The notes: generated by a model not told the origin, from the letters alone. A stretch of 57,170 bases of DNA from Alphaproteobacteria bacterium (GCA_040376255.1 JBEIQZ010000001.1:1-57170); one strand, 5' to 3'; counted from the first letter of the stretch, positions 3,735-26,780 are shown. Numbers and translations: made by a program.

Positions 3735-6194
<2,460 letters not shown>

Positions 6195-7387: not shown

Positions 7388-7393
7388 GGGTCG

Positions 7394-8536: not shown

Positions 8537-8554
8537 GAATCTCCTCCGGTCATC

Positions 8555-10286: not shown

Positions 10287-10487
10287 ACCGCCTTTCCGCC
10301 TTCCCGTGAGCCTTCTTGTGAACCTTCCCCGTCCACGCTCTGTTTCCCCCTGTACCCGGATCGGTGCAGGGGTTCAAGGGAGGGAGGAGAAATTTCCGTC
10401 GCTGGATCTTCGCCTGCCCCCTTGCCAAGCGCCTCAGATCCGATTATCCGGCGGGGCCGTTTTTAGAGCCAGAAGAAGGGAGTTCCG

Positions 10488-10643
10488 ATGAAGCGTACCT
10501 ATCAGCCTCACAACCAGCGCCGCAAGCGCACCCATGGCTTCCGGGCCCGCATGCAGACCCCCGGTGGTCGCGCCACTCTCGCCCGCCGCCGCGCCCGGGG
10601 GCGCAAGCGTCTCGCCGTGGTGGTTGCAACCAAGCGCAGCTGA
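10488..10643 (+). CDS. rpmH: 50S ribosomal protein L34
   Basis: Hand translation: [51 protein letters not shown] (51 aa). AGAAGAAGGGAG lies upstream. Too short for the ORF track. Confidence 0.95.
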
Positions 10644-10674
10644 TACGCCGGTTTTCCGGAAGAGACACTCCACG

Positions 10675-11040
10675 ATGGAGAGGCTTCTGCGCAGCCATGA
10701 CTTCCGACGGATTCAGGGTTCCGGTCGGAAGGTGCGCTCCACGCACCTGCTCCTCCTCGCGCTCCCGCGAAGACGTGCTCCAACGACCCAACAGACAGTG
10801 TCATTGGGCGCTGTGCCGGTTGTCGATTGCCGGTTCGGGCTTACCGTAAGCCGCAAGGTGGGCAACGCTGTGACGCGCAATCGTATCAAACGCTGGCTCA
10901 GGGAGGCGATCCGTCACCTCCCCCCGCCTGCGCGCGGCCCGTGGGATCTCGTGCTGATCCCGCACGCGGAGGCCATCAACGCCGGGTACCACGCGCTCGT
11001 TCAGGAAGTCGCCGATCTCTGGCAACGGGTCGCCCGTTGA
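10675..11040 (+). CDS. rnpA: RNase P protein component
   Basis: Starts at internal ATG 10675 of the 10534 ORF: [13 protein letters not shown]...[25 protein letters not shown] (RNR motif). Follows rpmH. Confidence 0.9.
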
Positions 11041-11084
11041 GTGATGCTCTCCCACGGACAGATGCCCGGCCCCCGGATCAAGCT

Positions 11085-11351
11085 GTGGCTGCCGTCCGCC
11101 CTGCTCCGGGTCTCATCGTCCGCGCGCTCCTCGCGCTGATCAGGGGCTGGCAACGCTTTGTCTCAGCCTGGATGCCCCCGGTCTGCAGGTTCTACCCTTC
11201 CTGCAGCCGCTATACGGCAGAGGCCATCCAGGTGTGGGGGCCGTTCCACGGCTCCTGGCTGGGCGTCAAGCGCATCTGCCGCTGCCACCCGTTTCACCCA
11301 GGCGGCCTCGATCCGGTGCCGCTTCCGCCCGGAGAGAAGAGATCGTCATGA
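11085..11351 (+). CDS. yidD: Membrane protein insertion efficiency factor YidD
   Basis: [15 protein letters not shown]...[24 protein letters not shown] signature. The start is uncertain; the in-frame GTG at 11085 was chosen. The stop overlaps the yidC ATG (ATGA). Confidence 0.8.
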
Positions 11352-12991
11352 AGGATCAGGATCGCAGAACCCTCCTGGCGATGATTCTCGCCCTGGCCAC
11401 CTATTACGTCTGGTCGGTCTTCTTCATAAAGCCCCCGGAGCCCGCTGAGATCCCGGTCAGCGGCGCGCCTGCGGTCGGCACCCCCGACGGCACCCCCGCC
11501 GGTACCCCCGGCGTCCTGACCGCTCCGGCCGCGCAGCCCGCCCCGGACTTCTCCTGTACCGACGCCCGCACCACCTTCGGGAGCGCGGTCCGGTTCGAGC
11601 TCTCCGACTGCGGCGGTATACGGAAGGTGGAGATCCCCGGCTACGAGGCAGCCATCCAGGTCACCCCCTGGTGGACCTGGATCTGGGGCCGCGTCACCGG
11701 CACCCACAGCGGCGGCTGGGCGCCCTATCACAGCGCCGGCACCGCCCAGAACCTCGCCTCCGGCCGCTTCGCCGAGGCGGGCGCGGGCGATCCCCTGCTC
11801 GCCTCCACCGGGCTTTGGAAGATCCAGCCCGGCACGGGCGAGAGCGTCGAGGCCTCGTATACCACCCCGAACGGGGTCCTCATCCGCCGCGTCCTGAGCG
11901 CCACCGCTGAGCCGGACATCTACGATCTCTCCTGGCGCTGGGAGGCGCCCGCCGGGGCGCAGGGACCGTTCTGGGTCGGGCTGCAGGAGGAGCTTGTCAA
12001 GACCAGCGGCCCCTACGATCCGCACCTGCGCCTCGCTGCGGTGGTCGATGACTCCCTGGAGCAGCTCCACGCGCCCGAAGACGCCGCCGCCGGGCTGGTG
12101 TGGGACGGGCCTGTTTCGTGGATCGGACTGGAAGATCGGTACTTCGTCGCCGCCCTCCAGCCGCAGGATGTCCTCACAGACGTCCGCATCGCGACCGATG
12201 CAGGCGGCCTGACCCGCGCCTGGGTGCGGGCGACGAAGGAGTCGCTGACCCCCGGCGAGTCGGTGGAGCTGCGCTTCCGGCTGTACGTCGGCCCCAAGGA
12301 TGTGGAGCGCATGGCGGCGCTGGGCGGGGGGCTGGAAAAATCAGCCAACCTCGGTATCTTCGGGTTTTTTTCGAAGATCCTCCTGTTCTTCCTGGATCTG
12401 TTCTACCTCGGCGTGAAGAACTGGGGCATCGCGATCATCTGCCTCACCTTCTTCGTGCGCGCCAGCCTCTACCCCATCGCCTCGCGCGCCTTCAAGAGCG
12501 CCAAGGCTATGCAGGTGATCCAGCCGATGATGAAGGAGATCCAGGAGAAATACGCCGATGACAAGGAGCGTCTGAACGCCGAGTTGATGAAGCTTTTCAG
12601 CGAGTACAAGGTCAACCCCTTCGGCGGCTGCCTGCCGATGTTTGTGCAGATGCCTGTCTTCTTCGCGCTCTACTCCGCGCTCCAGGTCACGCCGAAGCTC
12701 TATCACCAGCCCTTCTGGTATATCCAGGATCTCTCTGCCCCCGATCCCTATGGCGTGTTCCCCGCCTTCATGGCCGTCGGCATGGTCGTCCAGCAACAAC
12801 TCACCCCGATGACCGGCATGGATCCCGCTCAACAGCGGATCATGAAATTCATGCCGTTGATGTTCGCGCTGTTCATGTTCACCGTGCCGTCAGGCCTCGC
12901 TGTCTACTACGCGATCAACACCGTCCTCAGTATCCTTCAACAGTGGCACAATATGCGGAGCTATTCGCTCTCCGCTCCGAAGCCGGCCTGA
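11348..12991 (+). CDS. yidC: Membrane protein insertase YidC
   Basis: Starts at ATG 11348 ([22 protein letters not shown]). Conserved C-terminal core includes [20 protein letters not shown]. Confidence 0.95.
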
Positions 12992-13021
12992 GCCTGGCAC
13001 TCTCCCGACAAGAGGTATCCG

Positions 13022-14170
13022 ATGAACGTACCTGAGAATCATGTAGTCGCCGAAGGGCGCACCCTCCGCGCCGCCCTCGACATCGCCGCCGAACAGCTTG
13101 GCGTCTCTGCTGATGCCGTCGAGCACAAGATCGACCTGCGCCACTTCCGCTCTGCCCAGGGGACCGGGATCGGCGTCGACACGGTCAAGGTCTTCGCCTG
13201 GATCCGCACCGGCCCGCCCCCGGCCCGGCCTGAGCCCCGGCCTGAGCCCCGGCCTGAGCCCCGGTCTGAGCCCCGGTCTGAGCCCCGGTCTGAGCCCCGG
13301 CCCGAGCCCCGCGCAGAGGCATACGGCGAACCCCGGCCCGAACCCCGGCCTGCTGCGCCGAGCCTGCCGCCCAGCCCTGCCGCCAGCGCGGCAGAGAAGT
13401 GGCTGCGCGACCTGCTGATCGCGATGAACATCCCCGGCAAGGTGTCTGTCACCTCCACACGGGATGAGGTCGTCCTCTCCCTCGACGCTGGAGAGCAGGC
13501 CCGTCACCTCGTCGGCAAGCGCGGCGCCACCCTCCACGCCATCCAGCACCTCCTCCACCTCTCCCTGCGCGATCGTTTCAACGATGAGCGCTTCCAGATC
13601 GACATCGCTGGAGGTGATCGCGACGAGCGGCGCGATGACCGGCGCGATGACCGGCGCGGCCCCCCCCGCGACGAGCGGCGCGATGACCGGCGCGATGACC
13701 GGCGCGGCCCCCCCCGCGACGAGCGGCGCGATGCCCCGCGCAGTGACCGCCCGCGCGATGATCGCCCCCGCGATGACCGCCCGCGCGATGACCGCCCCCG
13801 CGATGACCGCCCCCGCGATGACCGCCCCCGTGATGACCGCCCCCGCGATGACCGCCCCCGCGATGACCGTCGCGGGCCGCCGCGCGATGACCGTCGCGGG
13901 CCGCCGCGCGATGATCGCGGTCGCCGTAGCCGGGACGCTGAGGAGGAGGATCTGAAGCGCCTCGCCCGCAAGCTCGCGCAGCGCGTGCTGGCGACCGGCG
14001 AGCCGGAGCTGCTGCGCCGCGAGCTCAACAGCTATGACCGCCGCCTCGTCCACCTGGAGGTGGGCCGGATCGAGGGTGTCATGACCCGGTCGGTCGGTGA
14101 GGGCGTGGATCGCCGGATCGAGATCCTGCCAGGCGACGCCGGCAGCTCCGGCGAGGGCGCGGAGAGCTGA
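13022..14170 (+). CDS. jag: Jag/KhpB-like RNA-binding protein (Jag_N, KH, R3H) with two expanded low-complexity inserts
   Basis: N-terminal Jag_N-like segment, a KH-like segment (HLVGKRGATLHAIQHLL) and an R3H-like C-terminus (LNSYDRRLVHLEV). Position between yidC and mnmE. The domains are separated by PEPR and RDDRP repeat blocks. Confidence 0.85.
   Translation: MNVPENHVVAEGRTLRAALDIAAEQLGVSADAVEHKIDLRHFRSAQGTGIGVDTVKVFAWIRTGPPPARPEPRPEPRPEPRSEPRSEPRSEPRPEPRAEAYGEPRPEPRPAAPSLPPSPAASAAEKWLRDLLIAMNIPGKVSVTSTRDEVVLSLDAGEQARHLVGKRGATLHAIQHLLHLSLRDRFNDERFQIDIAGGDRDERRDDRRDDRRGPPRDERRDDRRDDRRGPPRDERRDAPRSDRPRDDRPRDDRPRDDRPRDDRPRDDRPRDDRPRDDRPRDDRRGPPRDDRRGPPRDDRGRRSRDAEEEDLKRLARKLAQRVLATGEPELLRRELNSYDRRLVHLEVGRIEGVMTRSVGEGVDRRIEILPGDAGSSGEGAES
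13222..13312. repeat. 12-bp tandem repeat (ccggcctgagcc-like, about 7 units) coding (P/S)EPR repeats in jag
   Basis: Read directly; the units are in frame. Translation: PEPRPEPRPEPRSEPRSEPRSEPRPEPR. Confidence 0.9.
13617..13925. repeat. Nested tandem repeats (15-bp cgcgatgaccgcccc units plus longer duplicated units) coding RDDRP / RDERRDDRRDDRRGPP repeats in jag
   Basis: Read directly. The block encodes about 100 aa composed almost only of R, D, P, G and E, lying between the KH and R3H segments. Confidence 0.9.
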
Positions 14171-14174
14171 GCCG

Positions 14175-15533
14175 GTGCTGGCTGATGCGCCGATCGTCGC
14201 CTGCCTGACCCCGTGGGGGGCGGGCGCCGTCTCGGCGCTGCGGCTCTCCGGGTCGGGCCTGCCGGAGATCCTCGCCCGGCTCTGCCAGCCGGGCCGGTTG
14301 CCGCCGCCCCGCCACGCGCGGCTTGTGCGCTTCCGCGACGCGGGAGGCTTTTTTGATGAGGGCCTGCTGCTGTGGATGCCCGGGCCGCGCTCCTGGACAG
14401 GGGAGGACGTGGCAGAGCTTTCCTGCCACGGGAACCCGCTGATCGTGGATCGGCTGCTGCAGGCATGCATCGACGCAGGGGCGCGGATGGCGCGACCGGG
14501 GGAGTTCAGCCGGAGGGCGGTGCTGAACGGACGCATGGATCTGTGCCGGGCTGAGGCGGTGCTGCAGACGCTCAGCGCGACATCAGCAGCGGGGCTGGAA
14601 TTGGCGCGGCAGGGGCGGGAGGGGCGGATCAGCGGGGTGGCGGAGGCGCTGCGCGCTGCGCTCGCGGACATCGCCGCCGATCTGGAGGCGATCCTCGACT
14701 ACCCGGGCGAGGATCTGCTGCTCCCTGACGACGCTGCGATCCGGGCGAGGCTGCTGGCGCAGGCGGCGGAGGCCGACCGGATCAGCGACACCTTCCGCGC
14801 CGGGCGGTTGGCGATCCAGGGGGCGCGCGTCGCCCTCGTCGGCCCGGTCAACGCCGGAAAGTCCAGCCTGTTCAACGCGCTGCTGGGCCGGAGCCGGGCG
14901 CTCGTGAGCCCCATCCCCGGCACCACCCGCGACATCGTGGAGAGCCCCCTCCAGCTCCCCGGCGTGCAGGTGCTGCTGCTCGACACCGCCGGGCTGCGCG
15001 CCTCCGGCGCCCCCGCCACCGATCCGATCGAGCAGGCCGGGCTCGATCTCGCCGCCGGGCTGATCGCAGAGGCCGATCTCCGCCTGCTCGTGTGGGACGG
15101 CAGCGCCGCCCCGCCAGATCTGGATCGCTACGCCGCCCTCGGCCCCTGCCTCCATGTCCGCACCCACGCCGACCTCTGCGCCGCGCCCCCCGATCCCGCT
15201 GCCCCCGATCCCGCCCCCGATCCCGCCACCCTCTCTGTCTCCAGCCGCACCGGCGCGGGCATGGAGGCGCTGAAGATGGCGATCCAGGCCGCCCTCGTCG
15301 GAGAGGAGCCCGGCGGCGTCGGCCTCCGGCTCGCGAGCGAGCGGCAGCGCGACCTGTTCCGGGCGGCGGCGGCGGCGGCGCGGGCGGCGGCAGAGGCGCT
15401 GCCGTCCGGCGGCCCTGCAGTCGCCGCCGAGCGGCTGTACGGGGGATTGGAGGCGCTCGACAGCCTGACAGGGCGGGAGACGCGGGAGTCAGTGATGGAT
15501 CGGTTGTTTGAGAAGTTCTGCGTTGGAAAATAA
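14175..15533 (+). CDS. mnmE: tRNA modification GTPase MnmE
   Basis: GTG 14175 lies 4 nt after the jag stop. G-domain GPVNAGKSSLFNALLG and DTAGLR. Canonical C-terminal CVGK. Confidence 0.92.
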   Translation: MLADAPIVACLTPWGAGAVSALRLSGSGLPEILARLCQPGRLPPPRHARLVRFRDAGGFFDEGLLLWMPGPRSWTGEDVAELSCHGNPLIVDRLLQACIDAGARMARPGEFSRRAVLNGRMDLCRAEAVLQTLSATSAAGLELARQGREGRISGVAEALRAALADIAADLEAILDYPGEDLLLPDDAAIRARLLAQAAEADRISDTFRAGRLAIQGARVALVGPVNAGKSSLFNALLGRSRALVSPIPGTTRDIVESPLQLPGVQVLLLDTAGLRASGAPATDPIEQAGLDLAAGLIAEADLRLLVWDGSAAPPDLDRYAALGPCLHVRTHADLCAAPPDPAAPDPAPDPATLSVSSRTGAGMEALKMAIQAALVGEEPGGVGLRLASERQRDLFRAAAAAARAAAEALPSGGPAVAAERLYGGLEALDSLTGRETRESVMDRLFEKFCVGK

Positions 15534-15803
15534 ATATATACCGTAAACTTCAACCGCAGACCTCCACTCGTCTTTTACTGTCCGCCCATTCTCCTGGCGT
15601 GTTCCCCGATACGCCCCGGCTGGCCCGGTGGACGTAAGGGGCGTAAACCCCAAAAGAGCCCCCGACATCATAGATATTACCGCCCCTTCCGTTCACCCCC
15701 GGCACGGGCCAGCCGTCGCGCGCCAATGCGCGCGGGGGGAGGCACCAGCGAAGCGCAGTGCCGATGCGGGGTTCCCCCCGCAAAAACAGGTTATCTCTAC
15801 GGC

Positions 15804-16772
15804 ATGATGCACCTGTTTGTGATGGATCCGATCGATCAGCTGAACTACCGGCATGATTCGACGTGGATGATGATGCGGGAGTGTTCGCGGCGCGGAGACA
15901 GGGTGGCGTGGTGTCACCCGGCGGCGATGTATGCGCGCGCGGGGCGCGCGTGGGCGCGGGCGCAGGCGGTGGTGGCGCTGGAGGGGGCGCCGTATTTTGA
16001 GGTCTCCGGGCCGGGGGACGGTTGGGCTGAGGTGGGGCTGGACGAGGCGGACGTCGTGTGGATGCGGAAGGATCCGCCGTTCGACATGACCTACATCTAC
16101 GCGACCTACCTGCTGGGGATGACGACGGCGCTGGTGGTGAATGAGCCGGGGGGGCTGCGGAGCCGGAACGAGAAGCTGTTCGCGTTCTCGTTCCCGGATC
16201 TGACGCCGGAGACGCTGATCACGGCGGACATCGGGCGGATCATCGCTTTCGCGGAGGAGCAGCCGGATCGGGTGGTGCTGAAGCCCTGGGACGGGAACGG
16301 GGGGCGCGGGGTGCTGGTGAGCCACAAGCGCGATCCGAACCTGCGGTCGATGGCGGAGATCCTGACCGGGGACGGGCGGTTCTCGATCATCGCGCAGCGG
16401 CACATCCCTGAGATCGTCGAGGGAGACAAGCGCGTCCTGCTGATCGAGGGGGAGCCGGTGGGGGCGATGCTGCGCGTGCCGACGGGGCGCGATCACCGGG
16501 GGAACATGCATGCGGGGGCGGGGGTCGTGGCATGCGGCCTCAGCGCGCGCGACCGCGAGATCTGCGACCGCATCGGTCCGATCCTGAGGAGGGAGGGGTT
16601 CGTGTTCGTGGGGATCGACATCATCGGCGGCCTCCTGACGGAGATCAACGTCACCAGCCCCACGGGCATCCAGGACATCAACCGGCTCGCAGGGAGTGCG
16701 CCGGGCGGGGGGATCGAGGTGAAGCTCTATGATGCGGTCGCGGCGCGCCATGCCAGTCGCTCCCGCGCCTGA
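15804..16772 (+). CDS. gshB: Glutathione synthetase (prokaryotic ATP-grasp type)
   Basis: Starts at ATG 15804 (MMHLFVMDPIDQLNYRHDSTWMMMRE). Contains LKPWDGNGGRGV and an ATP-grasp C-terminal part. Confidence 0.85.
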   Translation: MMHLFVMDPIDQLNYRHDSTWMMMRECSRRGDRVAWCHPAAMYARAGRAWARAQAVVALEGAPYFEVSGPGDGWAEVGLDEADVVWMRKDPPFDMTYIYATYLLGMTTALVVNEPGGLRSRNEKLFAFSFPDLTPETLITADIGRIIAFAEEQPDRVVLKPWDGNGGRGVLVSHKRDPNLRSMAEILTGDGRFSIIAQRHIPEIVEGDKRVLLIEGEPVGAMLRVPTGRDHRGNMHAGAGVVACGLSARDREICDRIGPILRREGFVFVGIDIIGGLLTEINVTSPTGIQDINRLAGSAPGGGIEVKLYDAVAARHASRSRA

Positions 16773-16821
16773 GATCAGCGCGCATGAAATGCGTGCTGAT
16801 TCACCTCCCTCTGATATGTTG
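16773..16821. repeat. Short palindromic repeat element, truncated intergenic copy
   Basis: atcagcgcgcatgaaatgcgtgctgat matches the reverse complement of 23452-23478 at 25 of 27 positions. gattcacctccctctgatatg matches 23415-23435 at 18 of 21 positions. The hairpin is agcgcgcat/atgcgtgct. The element supplies the ATG of the downstream TPR gene. Confidence 0.7.
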
Positions 16822-18060
16822 GAGCGGCTGAGCCGGAGGCGGCTGCTGGCGGGGCTGACGGCGGGGCTGACGGCGGGGCTGACGGCGCGTCCGGCGCGGG
16901 CGGAGGAGCCGGAAGAGCAGGAGGATCTGTCGGAGAACACGATCACCGGGCGCGCGCCGCCGCCGGCGTCGCTCATCCCGGTGACCCCGACGCTGGCGGC
17001 GGCGCCGCCGGCGGAGCTGGTGGCGCGGCAGCTGGGGGTGCCGCTGGATCTGGCGGCGGGGCTTCAGGCGGCCTGCGAGGGGATCTACGCGCGGGACTAC
17101 GCCGGGGCGAAGGCGGTGCTGGATCGGCTCACGGCGCAGTACCCGACGACGGGGGTGGGGCCGCTCGGCCACTCGATCATCTACCAGGCGTTGATGCTGG
17201 AGAACGTCGACTTCCGCTATGAGCGGGCCTGGCAGGCGGCCTGGGAGGCGACGCAGGCGCAGCTAAGCGCCGGGACGACCGGGGAGGCGAAGCGCGAGCT
17301 GGAGGCGCTGAAGGCGTTCATCCGGGCGGGATCGACGGGGCTGATGGCGATCCACCTGCTCCGGAAGAACGAGTGGGTGAGCGCGCTGGCGCAGGCGGTG
17401 GACGCGATGAATTCGCTGGAGCGCGCCTCCGCGCTGGCGCCGGAATTCGTGGACGTGCGGATCGGGGACGGGCTGTACCTGTACTGGCGCTCGGTGGTGA
17501 CGCTCCAGAGCCGGCTGTTGCCCCCGTTCCCTGACCGGCGTGCGGAGGGCTTCGCGCTGCTCCAGCAGGCGGAGCAGGAGGCGGCGTTCCTGGGGCCGGG
17601 GGCGAGCATCGCGCTCGTCTACTCCTGCATCGAGGAGCGGCGGCTGGATCTGGCGCTGGAGCGGTGCGCGTATCTGCGGCGGCGCTACCCGTCGAACGTG
17701 CTGAACCTGCTGACGATGGGGCGGGTGCTCTCAGCGATGCAGCGGCACGAGGAGGCGCTCCAGCTCTACGCGCACATCCGGGCGAAAATATCGTCCAACC
17801 AGCGGGTGTGGTACCAGGAGGCGGTTGCGCACACGCGGCTGGGGCGGTTCAGCGATGCGGAGCGGTGCCTGAAGATCTACCTGGGGTTCATCGACGTCAC
17901 GGCAGAGAACAAGGCGCAGACGCAGTTCCGGCTCGGGCAGGTCTACGAGAAGCTGCAGCGCCCGGCTGAGGCGCGGCGGTGGTATGAGGAGGCGATCCGG
18001 CTGACCGGGCATGCGGGCGCGGCGGCGGCGCTGAAGCGGCTGGATCGGCTGGGACTGTAG
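16816..18060 (+). CDS. Exported TPR-repeat protein with a twin-arginine-like signal
   Basis: MLERLSRRRLLAGLTAGLTAGLTARPARA, followed by TPR-like helical repeats. The start was chosen at ATG 16816; the track ORF begins at 16729 and would overlap gshB. Confidence 0.65.
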   Translation: MLERLSRRRLLAGLTAGLTAGLTARPARAEEPEEQEDLSENTITGRAPPPASLIPVTPTLAAAPPAELVARQLGVPLDLAAGLQAACEGIYARDYAGAKAVLDRLTAQYPTTGVGPLGHSIIYQALMLENVDFRYERAWQAAWEATQAQLSAGTTGEAKRELEALKAFIRAGSTGLMAIHLLRKNEWVSALAQAVDAMNSLERASALAPEFVDVRIGDGLYLYWRSVVTLQSRLLPPFPDRRAEGFALLQQAEQEAAFLGPGASIALVYSCIEERRLDLALERCAYLRRRYPSNVLNLLTMGRVLSAMQRHEEALQLYAHIRAKISSNQRVWYQEAVAHTRLGRFSDAERCLKIYLGFIDVTAENKAQTQFRLGQVYEKLQRPAEARRWYEEAIRLTGHAGAAAALKRLDRLGL

Positions 18061-18080
18061 GGGAGCCACGGGAGGGAGCG

Positions 18081-18680
18081 ATGTCGTTTTCGGTGTCACT
18101 GTGGGGGGCGATGTGGCTGGCTGCGATGTCCGGCTGCGTGACCGCCCCCGCGCCAGAGCGGCTGCTGGAGGTGCCTGAATTCTCGCTGGTGGATCAGGGC
18201 GGGCAGCCAGTGGGGCGCGCCGATCTGGCGGGGGAGGTGTGGCTCGCGGCGTTCATCTTCACCTCCTGTCCGGGGCCCTGCCCGATGATCTCCGGGCACA
18301 TGAAGGAGATCCAGGAGCACTACCGCGACGCACCGGCGGCGGCGGATCTGCGGCTGCTGTCGTTCACCGTCGATCCGGCGACCGACCGGCCGGAGGTGCT
18401 GCGCGCCTACGGGGAGCGGTTCGGGGCGGACTTCGGGCGCTGGCGGCTGCTGACGGGCGAGCCTGCGGCGGTGGAGGCGCTGATCGTCGGCGGGTTCAAG
18501 CAGGCGCTGCAGCGGCTCCCGCCGCCTGAGGGGGCGGCAGGCCCGGTCAACATCCTCCATGCCGAGCGGCTGATGCTGGTGGATCGGGCGGGCTGGATGC
18601 GCGGGCTGCCCGATCCGTATGAGCCGGACAAGCGGCGGCTGTACGCGATGGTGGACGCGGTGCTGGCGGAGGGAGGCTGA
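18081..18680 (+). CDS. SCO1/SenC family copper chaperone (thioredoxin fold), lipoprotein-like signal
   Basis: FIFTSCPGPCP CxxxC motif, a downstream His (ILHAERL region), and an LAAMSGC lipobox. Confidence 0.8.
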   Translation: MSFSVSLWGAMWLAAMSGCVTAPAPERLLEVPEFSLVDQGGQPVGRADLAGEVWLAAFIFTSCPGPCPMISGHMKEIQEHYRDAPAAADLRLLSFTVDPATDRPEVLRAYGERFGADFGRWRLLTGEPAAVEALIVGGFKQALQRLPPPEGAAGPVNILHAERLMLVDRAGWMRGLPDPYEPDKRRLYAMVDAVLAEGG

Positions 18681-18713: not shown

Positions 18714-21700
18714 TTATAGAGCTGTGCGAAATGCTGAAATCAGTTCCATCAGGCACTCGCTGGTGAAGACGGGGCTGAGCGCGCCGAAGGGGCGGGGCTG
18801 GCTGCTGGCGGCCTGGTAGAGCCGCACCTTCCCGACGCGCTGCGGCGGCTGATCAGCGGGGGGCGCGGGCGAGAGGCCCGGCTCCAATTCCAGCTCGACG
18901 ATAAAATTTCCGACGATCCGGTTGATCGGCGCCTCGCCGCCGCCCCCCCGCTCCCAGCCGCGTGACAGCAGCCCAAACAGCGGCCCCGGCTGCACGCTCC
19001 GGCCCTCCCAGCGGGTGAGGGCGGGGCTGGCGCGCTCTGAGGGGGTGAGCGCGTAGAATTCACGGGCGAGCTGCGGGAAGGGCTGGGCGATGCCGTAGTC
19101 CCCGAAGACGCGCGCCCAGGCGTCCCGCGCGGCGCCGGTCATCAGCAGCGGGTGGGAGAGCCGGACGGCGGCGCCGGGGGGGAGTGCCATCGGCAGATCG
19201 TCAACGTCGGCGGCGCTGCCGTCCTCAGCGATCCGGAACCGGATCGGCGCGTCCTCCCCGGCGGGGACGATCTCCCAGAGCAGGCGCCGGGCGAGGCCGG
19301 AGAGGAGCGGGTGGTCGGCGATGCAGTCGCGGAAGGTGCGGTGCGGCCACGCCTGCTGGCTGCAGAGCGCCTCCTCGAAGCGGCGGAGCTGCTGCCTGGA
19401 GATCTCCTTGAGATCCTGCCGGAGCGCAGCCCAGCGCGCGGCGGCCTCGGCGGCGAGCGCGGGATCGTCGGACTTCAGCGGGCGCGGCAGCGTCTGGAGC
19501 GGCGCCCCGGCGCCTGCCCCGGCGTCCGCTCCGGAGATGGCGTAGAGGCGCGGCTGGAGGAAGGTGTCGAGCCGGATCTCGAAGCAGCGCGGGCCGAAGT
19601 CGAGCAGCATCCGGCCTGCGGCGTCGAGCCCGAGATCCGGGACGAGCTGATCGGCGAATTCTCCGGGGAGGAGGCCCCGCCGCGCCGCGAGATCGGAGAG
19701 CAGGCGCTCCGCCTCCCGCCGGAGTCCGGGCTGGCGGGCGCGGGCCGTCCCGGCGAGGTGGAGCAGGCCGACCGGGGAGGGGTGGGCGGCGAGGACGGGC
19801 AGGGCGGCGAGGGCGCTCTGCTGATCGCCGTCGCTGATCCAGGCGCGGAGGCGCGCGCCCAGCAGGCGGATCGCCGCCCCGTCGCCCCAGAACGCCAGGG
19901 ACTTCAGCGCCCAGCGCCCGGCGGCGGGGCGGCCCTCCAGATCCCAGTGCTGGAAGGCGGCTGCGGCGAAGGCGGCGAGGGAGGCCGGGGTGCAGGCGTC
20001 GCCTGCGTCGGCGATCCCGGCGTAGGGGGTGGTCAGATCGGTGAAGTGGAACATCGCAGCGACGAGCGGGAGCGACCCCGGCGGCAGGGACATACCGGCG
20101 TACGGCCCTGAAGCGAGGACGGGGGCGGGGAGCAGCGGGGGCATCCATCCGGTCTGGAGCGCGGAGCGCTTCGCCGGGAGATCGGAGAGCGGATCCCGAT
20201 CGAGCAGCAGCGCCAGGGCGGCGAGGGCCGCCGGGTCGGAGAGGGCGGCCTCCATGCGCGCCCTGAACCCGGCGGCGGCCAGGTGGCGGAGCGGGGGAGC
20301 GGCCTGCCGGGCGGCGGGGTCGGCGCCGGTGGCGGGCGGCAGCAGCGCCTGAACCGCGACCTCCGGCCACGCCCGGAGCCAGCGGATCGCCTGGGCGCGG
20401 TGGGCCTGCCGACCGAAGGCGGCGGCCATATGGCGGGCGACCTCCGGAGCGCCGAAGGGCATCATCACCTCCAGCCGCTGGCGCGCATGCGAGGCGGGCA
20501 GCGCGAGGAGCCCCGGCAGCGCCGCCGGGCCGAGCCAGGCCATCACCGCGCGCAGGTCAGCGAGGGAGATCCCCCACGCCGAGCAGGCCGTGCGGTTCCA
20601 GACCTCCAGCGCCATCCGATCCGGCAGCAATTCCAGCATTGACACGTCGGGCGCGCAGACGTCCTCAGCGTCGAGCGCCGCGCAGAGCGCGCTGAACAGC
20701 GCCGGGTCATCTGCGCGATCCGCTGCCAGCGGCGCGAAGGCCGCGTCGAGCCCAATGTACTCCAGCACCTCAACCACCGGCTCCTCCGTGTCTGCGGGGA
20801 TCTCCGTCTCGCGGGTCTGCAGCCACACGGCGCGGGCGGCGAGCCACTCCTCGCGTTGATCCTGCTCCCACCGTACGGCGGTCGGGCAGGGGGGCAGCGT
20901 GATCGGGGGCTGCCTCCGGCGGGCAGGGCGCTTCTGCAGCCAGGGCGGCTCGCGCAACACGCGCGGCAGGGCGCTGTCCGGGGCGCTGTCCCCGGCGGTG
21001 AGCTGGAGGCCGGAGAGCAGCAGCCGGGCGGCCTGCGCGGCGCGGGTGCGCCCGATCCCGGCCTGTTGGAGCGGCGCGATGGCGGCGCCGGGGTCGCGGA
21101 GGCAGGCGCGGCGCGCGTGTTCAAAACAGAAGGGTACATCCAGGTTGTGGAGCAGCGCAGGCAGCACGCGCGGGTCGTCGACCCCGGCCAGCACCTCGCG
21201 GATCCCTCCGTCGTCGTCGCGGGGCAGCATCCGGAGCAGCAGCGGGATCGCCCCCCTGCCGAACCGCCACAGCAGCGTCCGGCAGAGGGAGCGGCTGGAC
21301 TCCGTGAGCCCGTCCGAGAAGATGGGCGGGTCCGCCGGGGCGTCCGCCGGGGCGTCCGCCGGGGCGTCCGCCGGGGCGTTCAGCAGCCGATCCAGCCAGT
21401 CCGCCGACGGCGCTGAGAACAGCAGGCACTTAGGCAGCTCCCCTCCCCTCCCCTGCGCCGCCGCCCGCGTCACCACCCCCGGCACAAAGTCCGCGTCCGG
21501 GAACAGGAACGCCAGCGCAGCCCCCTGGATCGGGCTGCTCTCCGGCAGCCACGCCGCGACGAGATCCCGCAGCCGCGCCCACTCCGCCTCCGGCAGCGCG
21601 CACAGCATCCCCCGCAGCGGCAGCCACAGCCGCAGATCGCCGCTCCACAGCCCGCCGCCCCTGCGCTCCGCCGGATCGTCCACCAGCACCATCCGGCGGC

Positions 21701-22145
21701 TCCCCTCCACCCAGCCCCGGGAGAGCCCCCGGTGCAGCACCGCCAGCACCCGATCCCAGCCGTGCAGCAGGTACAGCCGGTTCTGCCAGAGCCAGCGCGC
21801 CCCCACCGCGTCCGTCAGCGCCCACGGGTGATCGAGCAGCGCCGCCATCGCCGCCGCCGCCTCCTCGCCCTCCGGCGCCGTCCCCGCCTCCAGCCCCGCC
21901 TTGACCGCGAGCAGCCGGGCCAGGTTCTCCCCCTCCGTCCCGTCCAGCACATCGTCCCACGGGAGCTTCTTCATGCTCTGCCGCAGCGTCGCCCAGAGCT
22001 TCGCAGGACTCCCGGTGAAATTCCGGGCGGCGCCGGGGCGGGCGCGGAAGGGGTAGATCTCCTCCTCGGTGTCCGTGCTTCCTGCGATGCTGTCTGGGAT
22101 GTTGTCCGGGATGCTGTCCGGGATGCTGTCGGGGGTGCTGTCCAT
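18714..22145 (-). CDS. Large (1143 aa) helical-repeat protein with a DUF4132-like C-terminal domain
   Basis: The C-terminal block RRFEEALCSQQAWPHRTFRDCIADHPLLSGLARRLLWEI resembles the DUF4132 (MolR-like) core as I remember it. N-terminal PDSIPDSIPDNIPDSI and internal ADAPADAPADAPADPP repeats. Confidence 0.55.
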   Translation of the reverse strand: MDSTPDSIPDSIPDNIPDSIAGSTDTEEEIYPFRARPGAARNFTGSPAKLWATLRQSMKKLPWDDVLDGTEGENLARLLAVKAGLEAGTAPEGEEAAAAMAALLDHPWALTDAVGARWLWQNRLYLLHGWDRVLAVLHRGLSRGWVEGSRRMVLVDDPAERRGGGLWSGDLRLWLPLRGMLCALPEAEWARLRDLVAAWLPESSPIQGAALAFLFPDADFVPGVVTRAAAQGRGGELPKCLLFSAPSADWLDRLLNAPADAPADAPADAPADPPIFSDGLTESSRSLCRTLLWRFGRGAIPLLLRMLPRDDDGGIREVLAGVDDPRVLPALLHNLDVPFCFEHARRACLRDPGAAIAPLQQAGIGRTRAAQAARLLLSGLQLTAGDSAPDSALPRVLREPPWLQKRPARRRQPPITLPPCPTAVRWEQDQREEWLAARAVWLQTRETEIPADTEEPVVEVLEYIGLDAAFAPLAADRADDPALFSALCAALDAEDVCAPDVSMLELLPDRMALEVWNRTACSAWGISLADLRAVMAWLGPAALPGLLALPASHARQRLEVMMPFGAPEVARHMAAAFGRQAHRAQAIRWLRAWPEVAVQALLPPATGADPAARQAAPPLRHLAAAGFRARMEAALSDPAALAALALLLDRDPLSDLPAKRSALQTGWMPPLLPAPVLASGPYAGMSLPPGSLPLVAAMFHFTDLTTPYAGIADAGDACTPASLAAFAAAAFQHWDLEGRPAAGRWALKSLAFWGDGAAIRLLGARLRAWISDGDQQSALAALPVLAAHPSPVGLLHLAGTARARQPGLRREAERLLSDLAARRGLLPGEFADQLVPDLGLDAAGRMLLDFGPRCFEIRLDTFLQPRLYAISGADAGAGAGAPLQTLPRPLKSDDPALAAEAAARWAALRQDLKEISRQQLRRFEEALCSQQAWPHRTFRDCIADHPLLSGLARRLLWEIVPAGEDAPIRFRIAEDGSAADVDDLPMALPPGAAVRLSHPLLMTGAARDAWARVFGDYGIAQPFPQLAREFYALTPSERASPALTRWEGRSVQPGPLFGLLSRGWERGGGGEAPINRIVGNFIVELELEPGLSPAPPADQPPQRVGKVRLYQAASSQPRPFGALSPVFTSECLMELISAFRTAL

Positions 22146-22427: not shown

Positions 22428-23834
22428 TCAAGACTTGAACGATCCGGAGTCGGCCATATCTGCACGCCAGCGACGCCACTCTCCGGCCTCGTCGGCGGGG
22501 ACAAAAGCGCGGGCCGGGACTGCGGCGTGGTAGGATCGGAAGGCGGCGGTGAAGGCGGCGGGATCTGACCCGAACCAGCGGGCCGCCTGGGCGTCTCCGT
22601 GGAGCAGCCGCTCGAACCGGAGCCGCGCCACGAGCAGCCCCGCCGCCCGGAACCCGTCCGGGTCGATGCCGGCTGTCAGCGGCGAAGGCGCCGCGAGGGC
22701 GGCGCGCGGATCGGGCAGGCGCAGCGCGGCGGCGAGGAAGCTCTCCCAGCGGTCGAGGTGGTCAGGGGGGCCGGAGGGCAGCGGGGCGCTGGAGATCGCG
22801 CGAGCCGGTCTTGAGGCTGCGCGGCTCAGCATCGCCCGGACGCGCTCCAGCTCTGCCGCCAGCCCCTCCGCCTCGGCTCCGGTCGTCACGCTCCCCTCGA
22901 TGCGCTCCAGCGTGACCCCGCGCAGCCCTGTGCAGCGCGACAGCGCCGCCTCCAGCAGCGCCCACACCGGCTCCGGCACCGGCGCGTCGTGCCCGTCCAT
23001 CCACAGCGTGCGCAGCCTCCAGCCCTCCGGCGCGGGCCGACCCCCGGCGATGTGGATCTCGATCACCCGGTCGAGCGGCGCGCGATCCAGCCACGCCATC
23101 GCGTCGAAGCCGAGGTTCTGCGACATCGCATAGAGGTTGTGCAGATCGAGGAGCAGCCGGTGCGGGCCGACGGCCTCCGCGATCCAGCCCGGCTCGTCGA
23201 GCGGCGCCCCGGCCAGGAACAGGTGCGCGCTGTTCTCCACCCCGACCAGCGGCACCACCGCCGCCATCGCGTCCAGCCGCGTCCGCACCCGCGCCGCCGC
23301 CTCCCGCGTGAACGGCAGCGGCAGCGGCAGCGCGAGGTTCTCATATCGGAGGGAGTGGAATCGATGCTCGATGGCCCGGAGGGGCTGACGCCCCATCCCG
23401 GCCACCGAAGCCCCGATTCCACTCCCTCCGATATGTTGCTCTCTGATGATATCCGCACGCATTTCATGCGCGCCGATATCACCCGCCACCACCGTAAGCG
23501 CGAGGTGATCCGTCCACCAGCCGAACCCGAATTGCCGGTGATCGCGCGCCACCGCCGCCAACCAGCGCGCCCGCCGCGCCTCCCCGCCCGCGCTCCCCGG
23601 CGACACCCCGACGCTGTGCGCCACCGCCGCCAGCCCGCGCGCCTGCTGCAATTCTGCGAACGCCCGCCAGTAGCCGTTCGGCTCCAGGGCTGCGCCGCGC
23701 CACAGGGTCTCCGGCGTCAGCGATACATATTGTACAAGCTCCAACAGCGGCTCACACCACCGCATCCACTCCGGCTCCGGCGCCAGCGCCAGCCCGATCT
23801 GTACCGGCGCGCCGCGCTGCGCCTCAGCCGACAT
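22428..23834 (-). CDS. DUF692 / MNIO-family (MbnB-TglH-BufB-like) TIM-barrel iron enzyme with a ~140-aa C-terminal extension and an internal ~46-aa insertion
   Basis: Family blocks: VAHSVGVS, WWTDHLA, LPLPFTREAA, VGVENSAHL, LLLDLHNLYA, IEIHIAGG. Start taken at ATG 23834, 11 nt inside the end of the upstream gene; the track start is 23870. The extension has no recognised domain. Confidence 0.75.
   Translation of the reverse strand: MSAEAQRGAPVQIGLALAPEPEWMRWCEPLLELVQYVSLTPETLWRGAALEPNGYWRAFAELQQARGLAAVAHSVGVSPGSAGGEARRARWLAAVARDHRQFGFGWWTDHLALTVVAGDIGAHEMRADIIREQHIGGSGIGASVAGMGRQPLRAIEHRFHSLRYENLALPLPLPFTREAAARVRTRLDAMAAVVPLVGVENSAHLFLAGAPLDEPGWIAEAVGPHRLLLDLHNLYAMSQNLGFDAMAWLDRAPLDRVIEIHIAGGRPAPEGWRLRTLWMDGHDAPVPEPVWALLEAALSRCTGLRGVTLERIEGSVTTGAEAEGLAAELERVRAMLSRAASRPARAISSAPLPSGPPDHLDRWESFLAAALRLPDPRAALAAPSPLTAGIDPDGFRAAGLLVARLRFERLLHGDAQAARWFGSDPAAFTAAFRSYHAAVPARAFVPADEAGEWRRWRADMADSGSFKS
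23342..23480. repeat. Palindromic repeat element inserted in frame in the MNIO gene (full-length copy)
   Basis: Perfect 22-bp inverted repeat: catatcggagggagtggaatcg (23342-23363) and cgattccactccctccgatatg (23414-23435). A second hairpin lies at gcacgcatttcatgcgcgc (23454-23472). Related to 16773-16821. Confidence 0.75.
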
Positions 23835-24810
23835 AGTACTCCAGGAAGCGCGCCGCACGCGCCGGGACATGGCCCATCCCGCACCTGATCCCCGGCTGCT
23901 CCGCCTTCAGCGATCCGTCCGGTTGCTCATAGGAGACACCGCAGCCGGAGTCGTGCCCCCACCGCGAATTTACAGGTGCCTTCGCGCGGTACAGCGCCAC
24001 CCCGCGCTCCTGGAGCGGTGCGATGTCGGCTGGAAGCGGCCCGAGCGCGGCGCCCACCGCCCGCTCCACCGCCGCAGACAGCGCGTCGATGTAAAGATTG
24101 ATCAACCGGATCTGCTGCGTCACGCCCGGATCGGGATCGATGGTGATGCTGGACGCCGCCTCCAGGCGGATCGCCAGCCCAGACGCAGGCACCCCGGCGC
24201 AGGTGATCGCAGCCTCCAGCCGGGCGTAAATCTCCTCCAGCGCCCCTGACGCCTCCGCGAGCATTGACGTGTCCCTGTCCGCCAGGAGCGCCCCGATCTC
24301 ATGGAGCGTCCCCGCCGTCTCCGCCCGCGACGCTGCCGTCATGCACCCCGGCGACAGCCCCGCGAGCTCAGCGTTGATCGCCTGCCACTCCGACAGCTTC
24401 GCCTTCGCATCCAGCAACGGATCCACGGGCGGCGGCTCCACCACCGGATCGATGTCCGCCGCGACCGGCGCCCCGCCCGGCGGCACCAGCCAGAGCCACG
24501 GCGCTCCCGTGACGCTGAACACCTCCTCTACCGCCTGCGGATCGGCGCACACCGCCTCGCACTGCCCGAGCCGCGCCATCACCCGCTCATCGGCGTAGTT
24601 CAGGAGCGGCCCCCACCGCTCAGTCCGCTCCCACGACCGATCCGCAGGCGCCACAATGATCAGCAGCGGACGCCCCGCCGCCCGCGCCGACGACTGCGCC
24701 GTCAGGAGCCCCGGCACCGCACCCGCCGCGCCCCACGCCTCCTGCAGCCACAGCGGCATCGTGCCTGCAGTGAGCGCCCCGATCCCCGCCAGCAACCTCC
24801 TCCGGTTCAT
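23824..24810 (-). CDS. Tat-signal protein, paralog A, with a conserved C-terminal Cys motif; candidate MNIO substrate
   Basis: MNRRRLLAGIGALTAG twin-arginine signal. C-terminus: SRWGHDSGCGVSYEQPDGSLKAEQPGIRCGMGHVPARAARFLEYYVG. ATGA overlap with paralog B. Confidence 0.7.
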   Translation of the reverse strand: MNRRRLLAGIGALTAGTMPLWLQEAWGAAGAVPGLLTAQSSARAAGRPLLIIVAPADRSWERTERWGPLLNYADERVMARLGQCEAVCADPQAVEEVFSVTGAPWLWLVPPGGAPVAADIDPVVEPPPVDPLLDAKAKLSEWQAINAELAGLSPGCMTAASRAETAGTLHEIGALLADRDTSMLAEASGALEEIYARLEAAITCAGVPASGLAIRLEAASSITIDPDPGVTQQIRLINLYIDALSAAVERAVGAALGPLPADIAPLQERGVALYRAKAPVNSRWGHDSGCGVSYEQPDGSLKAEQPGIRCGMGHVPARAARFLEYYVG

Positions 24811-25757
24811 CCCGCCTCCCCGCCCGCCAAAAACTCAAGGAACCGTGCCGCCCGCGCCGGGACATGCCCCATCCCGCAGTCGAACCCCGGCGCGTCCGGC
24901 TCCCGCACCGCCTCCCCGTCCGGCCCCTCGTATGCGTCCGGCCCGCACCCCGATCTCTGCCACCAGCGGCTCATCGGCGGCGGCCTCCGGCGGAAGCGCG
25001 CGATCCCGTCCCCGGCGAGCCGCGCCCGCTCCGCCGGATCCTCCGGCAGCGCCCCGGCGACCTCCCGCGCCACCGCCTCCACCAGCTCCTCCAGCGCCGC
25101 GACCTGCGCCGCGCACCACCCGTCCTGCTGCCGCTCCCGGCTGTCCGGGGGCTGGAGCAGCAGCGCCCGCGCCGCCGTGATCGCCCCCGGCTCCCCCGGC
25201 TCTGCGCGCGGGCCGCAGAGCCAGCGGGCGATGTCCGTGAGCGGCCCCGCCGCCTGCCAGAGCCAGCCGGGATCGTCGCTCCACGGCACCTCCTGCGCGC
25301 GACGGATCGCCTGCCCGATCTTGCGGGCCTCCCTCGGCTGGAGCCGGTGATCGCAGGCGGCGGCCAGCGCCCGGATCGCCGCGATCCGCTCCTCCAGCAG
25401 CGACGGGGGGAGCAGAACCGCCGGGGTCCCCGCCACCGCCCACTCCCCGGAGAGCCCCCACAGCCAGCCCGCTCCCTCTGCGCCCTCCAGCCCGGTCACC
25501 TCCCGGATCGCCGCCTCCTGCGCGCAGATCACATCGCACTGGCCGAGCCGCGCCATCGCGGCCTCCCCACCCGCGTTGAGCAGCATCCCCCACGCCCGCC
25601 CGCGCCAGGCAGACCCCCCCGGATCCGCCGCGCAGAGCGCCAGCAGCGGGCGCCCCGCCGCCTCCGCCGCCTGCCGGGCCGCCTCCAGCGCGACCGCCGC
25701 CGGGGACACCGGCGCCCGCGCTGCCCACAGGCAGATCCTCACGGCTGGATCGGCCAT
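24807..25757 (-). CDS. Paralog B of the Cys-motif protein; candidate MNIO substrate
   Basis: Shares the blocks AAGRPLL...MARLGQC(D/E)x(I/V)CA...WLW with A. C-terminus: SRWWQRSGCGPDAYEGPDGEAVREPDAPGFDCGMGHVPARAARFLEF. Start taken at ATG 25757. No clear signal peptide. The longer track ORF (to 26228) has a junk-like N-terminus. Confidence 0.6.
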   Translation of the reverse strand: MADPAVRICLWAARAPVSPAAVALEAARQAAEAAGRPLLALCAADPGGSAWRGRAWGMLLNAGGEAAMARLGQCDVICAQEAAIREVTGLEGAEGAGWLWGLSGEWAVAGTPAVLLPPSLLEERIAAIRALAAACDHRLQPREARKIGQAIRRAQEVPWSDDPGWLWQAAGPLTDIARWLCGPRAEPGEPGAITAARALLLQPPDSRERQQDGWCAAQVAALEELVEAVAREVAGALPEDPAERARLAGDGIARFRRRPPPMSRWWQRSGCGPDAYEGPDGEAVREPDAPGFDCGMGHVPARAARFLEFLAGGEAG

Positions 25758-26125
25758 TCCAGCTCCATCGGCCGCTCCAGCGCGGGCCACGCCTGCGCCC
25801 CGACCGCCTGCCGCAGACAGTCCGCCTCCCCGATCCCTGACCACAGCGCCTGCTCCAGCCCCCGGCCCACCCGCACGCGCAGCGTCCCGGCCGCCCCGCA
25901 GCCCGCCGCCTGCCCGCTGACGCGCGAGAGGATCCCGATCACCTGCCCCGCGTCCCCGGCGGTCTCCGACGGCAGCCCGGGCGGCCCGATCAGCGTGACC
26001 TCCGGCAGCGCCGCCGGAGCAGCCTCCGGGATCGCCACCCCCGGATCGTCGATCTCCCGGATCGCCCAGATCGTCAGCCCGGTCAGCAGCACGATCCGCA
26101 GCACCAACCATCGGTTGTTCAGCAC
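25739..26125 (-). CDS. Small membrane-anchored protein, first gene of the MNIO operon
   Basis: One TM helix (WLVLRIVLLTGLTIWAI) followed by a ~100-aa domain. GTG 26125 is preceded by GGGGAG; ATG 26197 is an alternative start. Overlaps the start of paralog B by 19 nt. Confidence 0.5.
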   Translation of the reverse strand: MLNNRWLVLRIVLLTGLTIWAIREIDDPGVAIPEAAPAALPEVTLIGPPGLPSETAGDAGQVIGILSRVSGQAAGCGAAGTLRVRVGRGLEQALWSGIGEADCLRQAVGAQAWPALERPMELEWPIQP

Positions 26126-26228
26126 ACAGCTCCCCTGTCTCTCTTCTCTGTCTCTCTTTATCACGAGAGCGGGCGGCCAGTTGTAAGGCCCATGCATGTG
26201 CTTCCGTTGCCCGGCGCCTGGAGGACAT

Positions 26229-26780
26229 ATGCTCGACTGGATCTGGATCGGAAGCCCCTGTGAGGCGGACTGGGATGAGATGAAGGGGGACGGGAAGTCC
26301 CGGTACTGCCTTCGATGCGAGAAGATGGTCTACAACCTCTCTGCGATGACCGAGGCTGAGGCGCAGGCGACGGTGTGCGGCTCTGAGAGCAGCCTGCCCT
26401 GCGTGCGCTTCTCGCGCATGTCGGACGGGCGGGTGCGGACGACGGATCGGCGCCCGCTGCCGCGCGTCGTGATGACCGGCGGCCTGCTCGCGGCGGCGGC
26501 GGCGACGGCGGCGCTCACCTCGCAGGAGGACGCCGGGGACTGGCTGTGGTCGCGGTTGAGTCCGGCGCCGAGAGAGGAGCCGGGGGTGCTGGAGGTGCCG
26601 GAGGTGGCGGGCAGCATCCCGGAGGCGGGCGGGGAGCCGGTCTACCAGGAGCGGCGCGTCCAGCTCGACGGAGCGCCCGGGGCGAAGATTGAGCCGATAC
26701 GGGAGCGGGTCGTGGCCGGAGGGATCATGTATCCCGCCCCTATGGGTCGGATGGCGATCCCGGATCGGTCAAAGCGCTGA
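26229..26780 (+). CDS. Cys-rich (zinc-ribbon-like) N-terminal domain plus one TM helix; divergent from the MNIO operon
   Basis: ATG 26229 follows GGAGGA. Motif C-x3-W-x2-M-x8-Y-C-x2-C-x3-V-x-N-L-S, then CGSESSLPCVRF. TM segment VVMTGGLLAAAAATAALT. Confidence 0.55.
   Translation: MLDWIWIGSPCEADWDEMKGDGKSRYCLRCEKMVYNLSAMTEAEAQATVCGSESSLPCVRFSRMSDGRVRTTDRRPLPRVVMTGGLLAAAAATAALTSQEDAGDWLWSRLSPAPREEPGVLEVPEVAGSIPEAGGEPVYQERRVQLDGAPGAKIEPIRERVVAGGIMYPAPMGRMAIPDRSKR

Follow-up and report, generated by a model that had tools for sequence, protein, structure and literature searches.

The MNIOs are a fast-growing enzyme family with unusual chemistry, most of whose substrates are still to be found. Among the systems described so far, the closest to the one analyzed here is the ChrH/DybH/MelH subfamily, known from the chryseobasins and from the MelA1-MelH-MelHc system of Melainabacteria. 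In the ChrH reaction, the thiol of one Cys is cross-linked to another Cys, whose carbonyl ends up between the amide nitrogens of the next two residues, Gly and Met (PMC10214503), and the product of ChrH, DybH, and MelH is a macrocycle/heterocycle with a mass change of -4 Da (or +10 Da). The substrates of these enzymes carry a CPACGMG core and include MelA1, a 34-kDa secreted protein that is likewise modified by -4 Da (PMC13056109, PNAS 2026). ChrH-type enzymes also possess a C-terminal helical domain which, in cyanobacteria, is a separate protein, MelHc, required for activity (PMC13056109). A 2025 paper on the MNIO landscape, which reported Sec signals on most precursors and DUF2063-like PME-type 2 partners, already raised the possibility that MNIOs modify proteins (PMC12452194); its main text mentions neither the substrate motif described below nor Myxococcota or Planctomycetota hosts. 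Here, we examine a stretch of 57,170 nucleotides deposited under the name Alphaproteobacteria bacterium (GCA_040376255.1 JBEIQZ010000001.1:1-57170, hereafter the window; all coordinates count from its first letter), in which an operon at 22428-26125 encodes an MNIO together with two paralogous proteins, A and B, that are its candidate substrates.

Judging from the conservation of genes and motifs across genomes, we consider it probable, at roughly 0.6, that the co-encoded MNIO modifies both A and B, a core reading that is well supported by comparative genomics. The substrate family is new, having no Pfam or NCBIfam model and being tied to its own MNIO clade, while the overall plan is already known from ChrH-type systems. 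The initial annotation of the locus, made from the window alone, could match its architecture to no described MNIO class; this claim has to be toned down because MelA1, MelH, and MelHc are a close functional precedent (PMC13056109) and protein substrates had been proposed before (PMC12452194).

Operon organization

The four genes of the operon lie on the minus strand and form a chain of overlaps, every junction of which was read from the sequence and agrees in each detail with what had been annotated: the small first gene overlaps that of B by 19 nucleotides, the ATGA at 24807-24810 is common to the stop codon of B and the start codon of A, and the ATG of the MNIO gene (23834) lies 11 nucleotides inside the gene of A. 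The features are as follows:

25739-26125, minus strand: small membrane-anchored protein gene (GTG start at 26125, TGA stop at 25739-25741, 128 residues, Shine-Dalgarno-like AGGGGAG upstream)
24807-25757, minus strand: paralog B (ATG at 25757, 316 residues, candidate MNIO substrate, N-terminus without RR motif)
24831-24971, minus strand: C-terminal motif of B, SRWWQRSGCG...CGMGHVPARAARFLEF (Cys271 at 24945-24947, Cys294 at 24876-24878)
23824-24810, minus strand: paralog A (ATG at 24810, 328 residues, candidate MNIO substrate)
24718-24810, minus strand: twin-arginine (Tat) signal region of A, MNRRRLLAGIGALTAGTMPLWLQEAWGAAGA
23836-23967, minus strand: C-terminal motif of A, SRWGHDSGCG...CGMGHVPARAARFLEY (Cys290 at 23941-23943, Cys310 at 23881-23883)
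22428-23834, minus strand: MNIO (ATG at 23834; alternative in-frame upstream ATG at 23870)
22797-23834, minus strand: MNIO catalytic core (residues 1-346 from ATG 23834, with the full H-H-E-D-N-H-D-H-E set)
23337-23483, minus strand: lineage-specific in-frame insertion inside the MNIO core (49 residues between the GDIGAHE... and LALPLPLP boundaries, 46 empty alignment columns)
22428-22796, minus strand: MNIO C-terminal extension (residues 347-468 and stop codon, ~120 residues past the core)

The product of the first gene is membrane-anchored at its N-terminus and 97% identical in the closest relative of the operon (locus L004, Logan SRR23086393). Neither this protein nor A or B had any match in library scans of Pfam and NCBIfam, and scanning the operon for promoters and terminators gave nothing. 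A and B are 35% identical (BLASTP, E=5e-31), and the N- and C-terminal blocks that had been quoted as common to both match the sequence exactly. The gaps flanking the operon hold no small Cys-rich open reading frame (ORF), which bears out the absence of a short precursor gene, and CGM[G/A] does not recur in a comparable setting in any further ORF of the window, so that A and B are indeed the only plausible substrates there.

Co-occurrence of the MNIO and its candidate substrates

The association of enzyme and candidate substrates was surveyed from both sides. A search of 185,579 species genomes with an alignment of 32 long-form MNIOs yielded 80 loci in Myxococcota (Sorangium, Minicystis, Sandaracinaceae, Nannocystis, Haliangium, Kofleriaceae, and Bradymonadia) and Planctomycetota. 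A/B-like genes, detected with a hidden Markov model (HMM) of the C-terminal 75 residues, are found directly upstream and on the same strand, in 1-8 copies, in 75 of these 80 MNIO-centered loci, and three of the remaining five lack any upstream DNA. Searching genomes from the substrate side with the pattern [VIM][AGR]CGMGHVP (14-sequence alignment) gave 41 confirmed loci; an MNIO lies directly downstream in 39 of the 40 new motif-centered ones, and the metagenome-assembled genome (MAG) containing the single orphan motif carries the full system on another contig. The pairing of motif and enzyme hence recurs in ~115 independent loci, more than expected by chance, and the predicted co-occurrence of A and B homologs with a DUF692 neighbor holds across genomes, almost without exception from either side. 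No other conserved substrate candidate gene is present in the ~115 loci. All-against-all clustering of the neighboring ORFs likewise detected nothing conserved beyond the core genes except for one Myxococcota lipoprotein. This protein, of ~290 residues and devoid of Pfam domains, is encoded directly upstream of the substrate genes in 34 Myxococcota loci, such as L085 4242-5108 of Sandaracinus amylolyticus (CP011125). In the window it could not be detected, and its position is occupied by the small 128-residue protein, which shows no detectable homology to it.

Several loci carry tandem arrays of substrate genes before a single MNIO gene, with eight in L011 (Planctomycetota MAG JAPLOE010000277), six in L031, and four in L025, and the copy number is highest in Planctomycetota. 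Conversely, the L004 locus has one substrate gene (1037-1963), whose product resembles B in its body and A in its C-terminal tail, FLEYYVG; the MNIO start comes directly after it. This suggests B/A recombination or the loss of A. A Brocadiaceae MAG (CAYMRG010000024, L141 3943-5787) encodes a substrate-like protein that has a Sec-type instead of a Tat signal and ends in PLGCTAEVLQGDPCPACGMGFVPPELNTLLKLVGP. Its motif, GC-x9-CPACGMGFVPPE, bridges the CPACGMG of chryseobasins and the A/B family motif, and the gene is followed by those for an MNIO and a split partner of the same clade.

A widespread family with a conserved cysteine motif

Homology searches with a word index, using either A alone or a 61-sequence profile, retrieved five proteins each, the index being swamped by Ala-rich words, so that an exhaustive HMMER search was needed to reveal the family. 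Among 1.84 billion representatives, clustered at 50% identity, this search detected at least 824 clusters at E<=1e-3, 633 at E<=1e-10, and 149 at E<=1e-30, mainly from Myxococcota and Planctomycetota and including Sorangium cellulosum So ce56. B matches the C-terminal family HMM with E=3.5e-20. The 150 best-scoring matches listed have lengths of 229-364 residues. The surroundings of relatives found early on were already telling: in a Deltaproteobacteria MAG, a lipoprotein gene is accompanied by those of two paralogs that have Tat signals and share the C-terminal motif, and of a 416-residue MNIO with the same extension, and a JGI contig carries two paralogs in tandem. A Pfam and NCBIfam scan of 116 members returned Tat-signal models only and no family model. 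Our literature search found no description of the substrate family and nothing relevant on CGMGH, on MNIOs with twin-arginine signals, or on DUF692 in Sorangium.

The family motif can be written as W-x5-GCG-x(12-25)-CGM[G/A]-x7-RFL. In the 116 best-scoring members, W284, C290, C310, G311, and R321 (A numbering) are invariant, and R3, R4, G289, G291, E295, M312, G313, F322, and L323 are conserved in at least 90%. The two C-terminal Cys, which the initial annotation expected to be invariant, are so in these 116 sequences; in a more diverse set of 61 sequences this applies to the second one, C310, C290 being kept in at least 90%. We derived motif statistics from 244 unique sequences, 229 of which are motif-bearing members. 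The CGM[G/A] core occurs in every member examined and is followed by His in ~64% (146 CGMGH, with 27 CGMGF, 14 CGMGY, or else R or S), and the first Cys stands in a GCG context in 200 of the 229. The spacing between both Cys has a mode of 14 and usually ranges from 12 to 25, four of the 229 members having CxxC (CxxCGMG, as in ChrH substrates). The motif never ends the protein: 14-42 residues come after it. Of the 229, 224 have an RR signal, and the Pfam TAT_signal model matches 14 family members.

These proteins resemble the substrates of ChrH, DybH, and MelH in possessing two Cys, a C-G-M-G sequence, and export signals, and with MelA1 that subfamily also has a known full-size secreted substrate. 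By contrast, the Cys of the A/B family are 12-25 residues apart instead of forming the CPxC of a CPxCGxG sequence, the motif is internal and followed by a conserved x7-RFLxF strand, the signal is of the Tat type and not Sec/SPI or SPII, and the family has a conserved N-domain, predicted to be thioredoxin-like, and tandem arrays of up to eight paralogs.

Export signals and predicted fold of A and B

Both paralogs had been described as exported proteins. This stands for A, whose N-terminus, MNRRRLLAGIGALTAG, consists of a canonical twin-arginine motif and a hydrophobic stretch as in Tat substrates, and not for B, whose N-terminus lacks the RR, as does that of its close homolog P0002. Paralog B may be carried out together with A, remain in the cytoplasm, or be in decay.

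We modeled A twice with AlphaFold2. With an alignment of seven sequences the C-terminus looked disordered, an impression overturned by the run with 116 sequences (mean pLDDT, the per-residue confidence score of the model, of 76). In this second model, A is predicted to be composed of the Tat signal, a thioredoxin-like N-domain (residues 31-118, beta-alpha-beta-alpha-beta-beta, pLDDT >90), a middle region of helices with low confidence, and a C-terminal beta mini-domain containing the Cys motif (residues 240-328, pLDDT 81-97). C290 is placed at a hairpin turn and CGMGH in a loop, and RFLEY forms the last strand. Foldseek found no significant whole-chain match of the model in the PDB, only weak local thioredoxin-fold matches (E >0.1, probability 0.6-0.8); the order of secondary structure elements agrees with that fold, and a CxxC at the canonical position is absent from the family consensus. 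The GHVPARAARFLE tail had been proposed as a recognition sequence. Its RFL end is conserved, but the model predicts folded beta-structure in place of a free recognition peptide, and the His is conserved in only ~64% of sequences.

The MNIO represents a distinct clade

The assignment of the enzyme to the DUF692 family was confirmed by a match of the 22428-23870 product to Pfam PF05114 (MbnB_TglH_ChrH) at 95.3 bits (E=4.9e-27), above the cutoff of 25. The alignment covers only profile positions 104-261 because of the insertion, whereas those of its relatives are full-length. Profile searches against the PDB retrieved TglH (8hci, 2.9e-26) and 3bww (1.1e-25). Nine residues, H73, H110, E200, D230, N233, H261, D280, H282, and E310, are invariant in 32 aligned sequences and all present in the window protein; by analogy with MbnB structures, we take them to be the multi-iron ligands. 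Hundreds of relatives were found, most of them of 400-480 residues, with 95% query coverage and the same extension, and the others of ~290 residues.

The NCBIfam models for BufB, ChrH, HvfB, and ApyH match the window MNIO far below their cutoffs, with 76 bits for BufB (cutoff 310) and 71 bits for MNIO_ChrH (cutoff 600). In typical members of the clade, MNIO_ChrH ranks first among the NCBIfam MNIO models, with 93-116 bits. Reciprocally, the HMM of the clade scores ChrH-type enzymes from genomes at 150-180 bits and BufB from plasmid bufferin operons at 100-119 bits. The Myxococcales and Planctomycetes sequences in the supplement of the ChrH paper carry ChrH-type signatures. A comparison with one of them gave 133-191 bits for ChrH/MelH, 45-71 for the present clade, and 33 for BufB. 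Placement relies on these score rankings, because a neighbor-joining tree with BufB as sole outgroup cannot show ChrH to be the nearest group. On this basis, the clade is best described as related to the ChrH family yet distinct, outside the subfamily and different from the published Myxococcota/Planctomycetota cluster. In architecture it parallels ChrH, DybH, and MelH, with an MNIO core, an extra C-terminal domain that is fused or separate depending on the lineage, and no DUF2063 or MbnC partner, but it differs from them as a separate clade with ~25% identity and 71-116 bits against a cutoff of 600.

The C-terminal extension had been suspected to replace a separate partner, which is supported by relatives where it is encoded as a gene of its own. 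In Sandaracinus amylolyticus, a 299-residue MNIO is followed by a homologous gene for 115 residues with the ...DPDG-R-ALLVARLR-ERL... block, and the enzyme profile is spread over two ORFs (positions 4-295 and ~300-420) in Sorangium, Minicystis, Chondromyces, and many MAGs. The window and ~10 other loci have one fused ORF. Because of the small separate gene in Sorangium, Sandaracinus, and others, we regard the extension as a fused partner, in parallel to MelH and its separate MelHc. The possible link to DUF2063 found no such backing, since Pfam gives no match to the extension, that family included, and profile-profile comparison (hhalign) with ChrH C-terminal domains and BufC/DUF2063 detected no similarity, with a probability below 1% for ChrH, using small alignments and three BufC sequences. 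The extension also differs in size from the ChrH-type domain (~120 residues versus ~7.8 kDa), to which homology was not detected. The ~115-residue protein right after the MNIO in Sandaracinus, without Pfam signature, recalls the PME-type 2 partners, short DUF2063-like helical proteins (PMC12452194), although the comparison of its fused version in the window with the three BufC sequences was negative.

A palindromic insertion and the genomic surroundings

The insertion in the window MNIO lies within the barrel, flanked by the H110 strand and the LPLPLP segment, and is absent from all of the other 31 aligned MNIOs. It contains an inverted repeat of 27 nucleotides (arms 23342-23368 and 23409-23435, 93% complementary) and, as RNA, folds with -118.6 kcal/mol (z=-11.9 compared with shuffled controls). 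It looks like a palindromic element, similar to a miniature inverted-repeat transposable element or a repetitive extragenic palindrome, placed in frame; the repeat arm has no exact match in the 185,579 genomes. An identical MNIO protein is also encoded on an independent ENA contig.

Two genes adjoin the operon. Directly downstream, on the same strand (18714-22145, minus), is the gene of a 1143-residue DUF4132 protein with short tandem peptide repeats, PDSIPDSIPDNIPDSI at its N-terminus and APADAPADAPADAPAD internally. In the opposite direction, and with its start adjoining the operon, a divergent gene (26196-26780, plus) encodes a Cys-rich protein of 194 residues (CFRC...C-x...CLRC), 86% conserved at the same position in L004 and without Pfam or NCBIfam match, that could be a regulator. 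Replication-origin-type genes occupy window positions 3738-18677: gyrB, dnaA (8985-10373, minus), yidC (11045-12988, plus), mnmE (14085-15530, plus), gshB, a TPR protein gene, and SCO1. In Sorangium genomes, the homologous MNIO locus is likewise within ~0.2-0.3 Mb of coordinate 1. The window GyrB is at most 67% identical to that of any species-representative genome, the best match being a Myxococcota MAG, so that the host belongs to a poorly sampled lineage.

17988-18677, plus strand: SCO1/SenC (E=1.9e-25)

The SCO1 gene had prompted the idea of a copper-related role for the operon. The gene is there, but the copper role is not borne out, as SCO1 is not conserved with the module among the neighboring ORFs; a copper role via SCO1 was accordingly rejected as a conserved feature.

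Proposed mechanism and alternative explanations

In the mechanism that we propose, a cytoplasmic MNIO, comprising a multi-iron TIM barrel and a fused partner domain, would oxidatively rewrite the conserved C-terminal motif of A and B. Access of the enzyme to a Cys motif that is predicted to be folded would require modification before folding, and the order would be modification, folding, and then export, A leaving the cell via Tat and B, devoid of a signal, hitch-hiking with A or staying inside. The Tat pathway exports folded proteins, and the RR signal in nearly the whole family fits with modification and folding in the cytoplasm prior to export. As to the chemistry, our best guess would be a four-electron oxidation of the ChrH/DybH type, because the invariant C-G-M triad and the second Cys match the residues used in the ChrH reaction; such a specific assignment falls somewhat short of even odds. 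The C290 thiol of A would be cross-linked to a rearranged C310-G311-M312 triad, yielding a thio(hemi)aminal macrocycle and an imidazolidinedione-type heterocycle, so that a folded, exported, thioredoxin-like protein would come to carry a covalent staple or a prosthetic group derived from its own chain. In its full form, with a widespread class of Tat-exported, predicted thioredoxin-like proteins in which a dedicated MNIO clade installs a cross-link and a heterocycle between invariant Cys ~14 residues apart before folding and export, the proposal is a tentative one.

Several observations weigh against it. The clade remains far under the MNIO_ChrH equivalog cutoff, its mean core identity of ~25% is the same to ChrH-type and BufB-type enzymes, and, in the small alignments used, profile comparison links the extension neither to the ChrH C-terminal domain nor to DUF2063. 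On the substrate side, the motif is predicted inside a folded beta mini-domain and not in a free tail, always precedes a further stretch of residues, and has Cys 12-25 residues apart rather than 2; a ChrH-type macrocyclization across such a distance is unprecedented. Finally, the window copy itself could be impaired, because of the unique insertion of 46-49 residues and of B lacking the Tat motif.

A and B could be substrates of a different chemistry, akin to that of bufferins, oxazolins, or methanobactin, in which each Cys-Gly would become a 5-thiooxazole or an oxazolone-thioamide and create, together with Met or His, a periplasmic metal (copper) site. As we propose it, the present system does share with bufferins and oxazolins (BufA-BufB-BufC; HvfABC; PMC11626156, PMC12452194) an MNIO for Cys-Gly sites of exported, sometimes large precursors, as well as the gene order, with precursors preceding the enzyme. 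Gly follows both conserved Cys (in the GCG and CGM contexts), like in EGKCG and MbnA-type sites (PMC13056109, PMC12452194), the window MNIO scores slightly higher with BufB than with ChrH, and SCO1 is 3.7 kb from the operon. Yet typical members of the clade rank ChrH over BufB, SCO1 does not accompany the system elsewhere, the His after CGMG is only partly conserved, and the full invariance of C-G-M is explained by ChrH chemistry and not by thiooxazole formation. Nor does the operon have what distinguishes bufferins, namely a separate DUF2063-RRE partner, Sec signals, precursors with DUF2282, Buf_6/12Cys, or EGKCG, and DoxX and sigma/anti-sigma factor neighbors; A and B have no Pfam domain, and the family has Tat signals. 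We deem this chemistry unlikely, if less so than the two explanations that follow.

We find it improbable that A and B are not substrates at all but Tat-exported (metallo)proteins or chaperone-like thioredoxin-fold proteins, with the Cys pair serving as a disulfide or metal site and the MNIO and its partner acting elsewhere or, for instance, delivering a cofactor. Tat export is typical of cofactor-containing proteins, with which the signal of A is consistent, and both the predicted folding of the Cys motif, where a core peptide would be flexible, and the size of A and B, far above that of classical precursors of peptides that the ribosome makes and that are modified after translation (RiPPs), point in the same direction. 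Against this, the ~115 loci offer no alternative conserved substrate gene, the 1-8 copies per enzyme are typical of precursors, the CGM[G/A] core is common to proven ChrH-family substrates, and the characterized MNIOs in the papers cited all act on a co-encoded peptide or protein. Local decay in the window genome is of comparably low probability and compatible with the other readings: the palindromic insertion would have put the MNIO out of action and B would persist as a remnant without signal, the system being functional elsewhere. The uniqueness of an insertion located within the barrel, the lack of RR in B and P0002 compared with 224 of 229 members, and the single chimeric substrate gene kept by L004 are all in agreement with such decay. 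However, all reading frames are intact with overlaps indicative of translational coupling, the nine invariant MNIO residues are retained, and the same MNIO protein recurs on the independent contig. Moreover, proteins can accommodate palindromic elements inserted in frame where these fall in surface loops, as with the Rickettsia palindromic elements. Modification of A and B by the co-encoded MNIO remains our preferred reading.

Implications for the MNIO family

Since the family is present in cultivable, tractable myxobacteria (Sorangium, Minicystis, Chondromyces, and Sandaracinus), the prediction is directly testable. If correct, it would add a conserved family of folded proteins to the short peptides and the one TPR protein on which ChrH-type chemistry acts, and Tat would join the export routes of MNIO products. 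It would also raise the question of the role of a modified loop in a periplasmic thioredoxin-like protein. If, instead, the chemistry proved to be unlike both the ChrH and the bufferin types, it would represent a new MNIO reaction. In the tentative full form of the proposal, the MNIO would build a protein-derived cofactor or staple within a folded protein, and not a peptide natural product.

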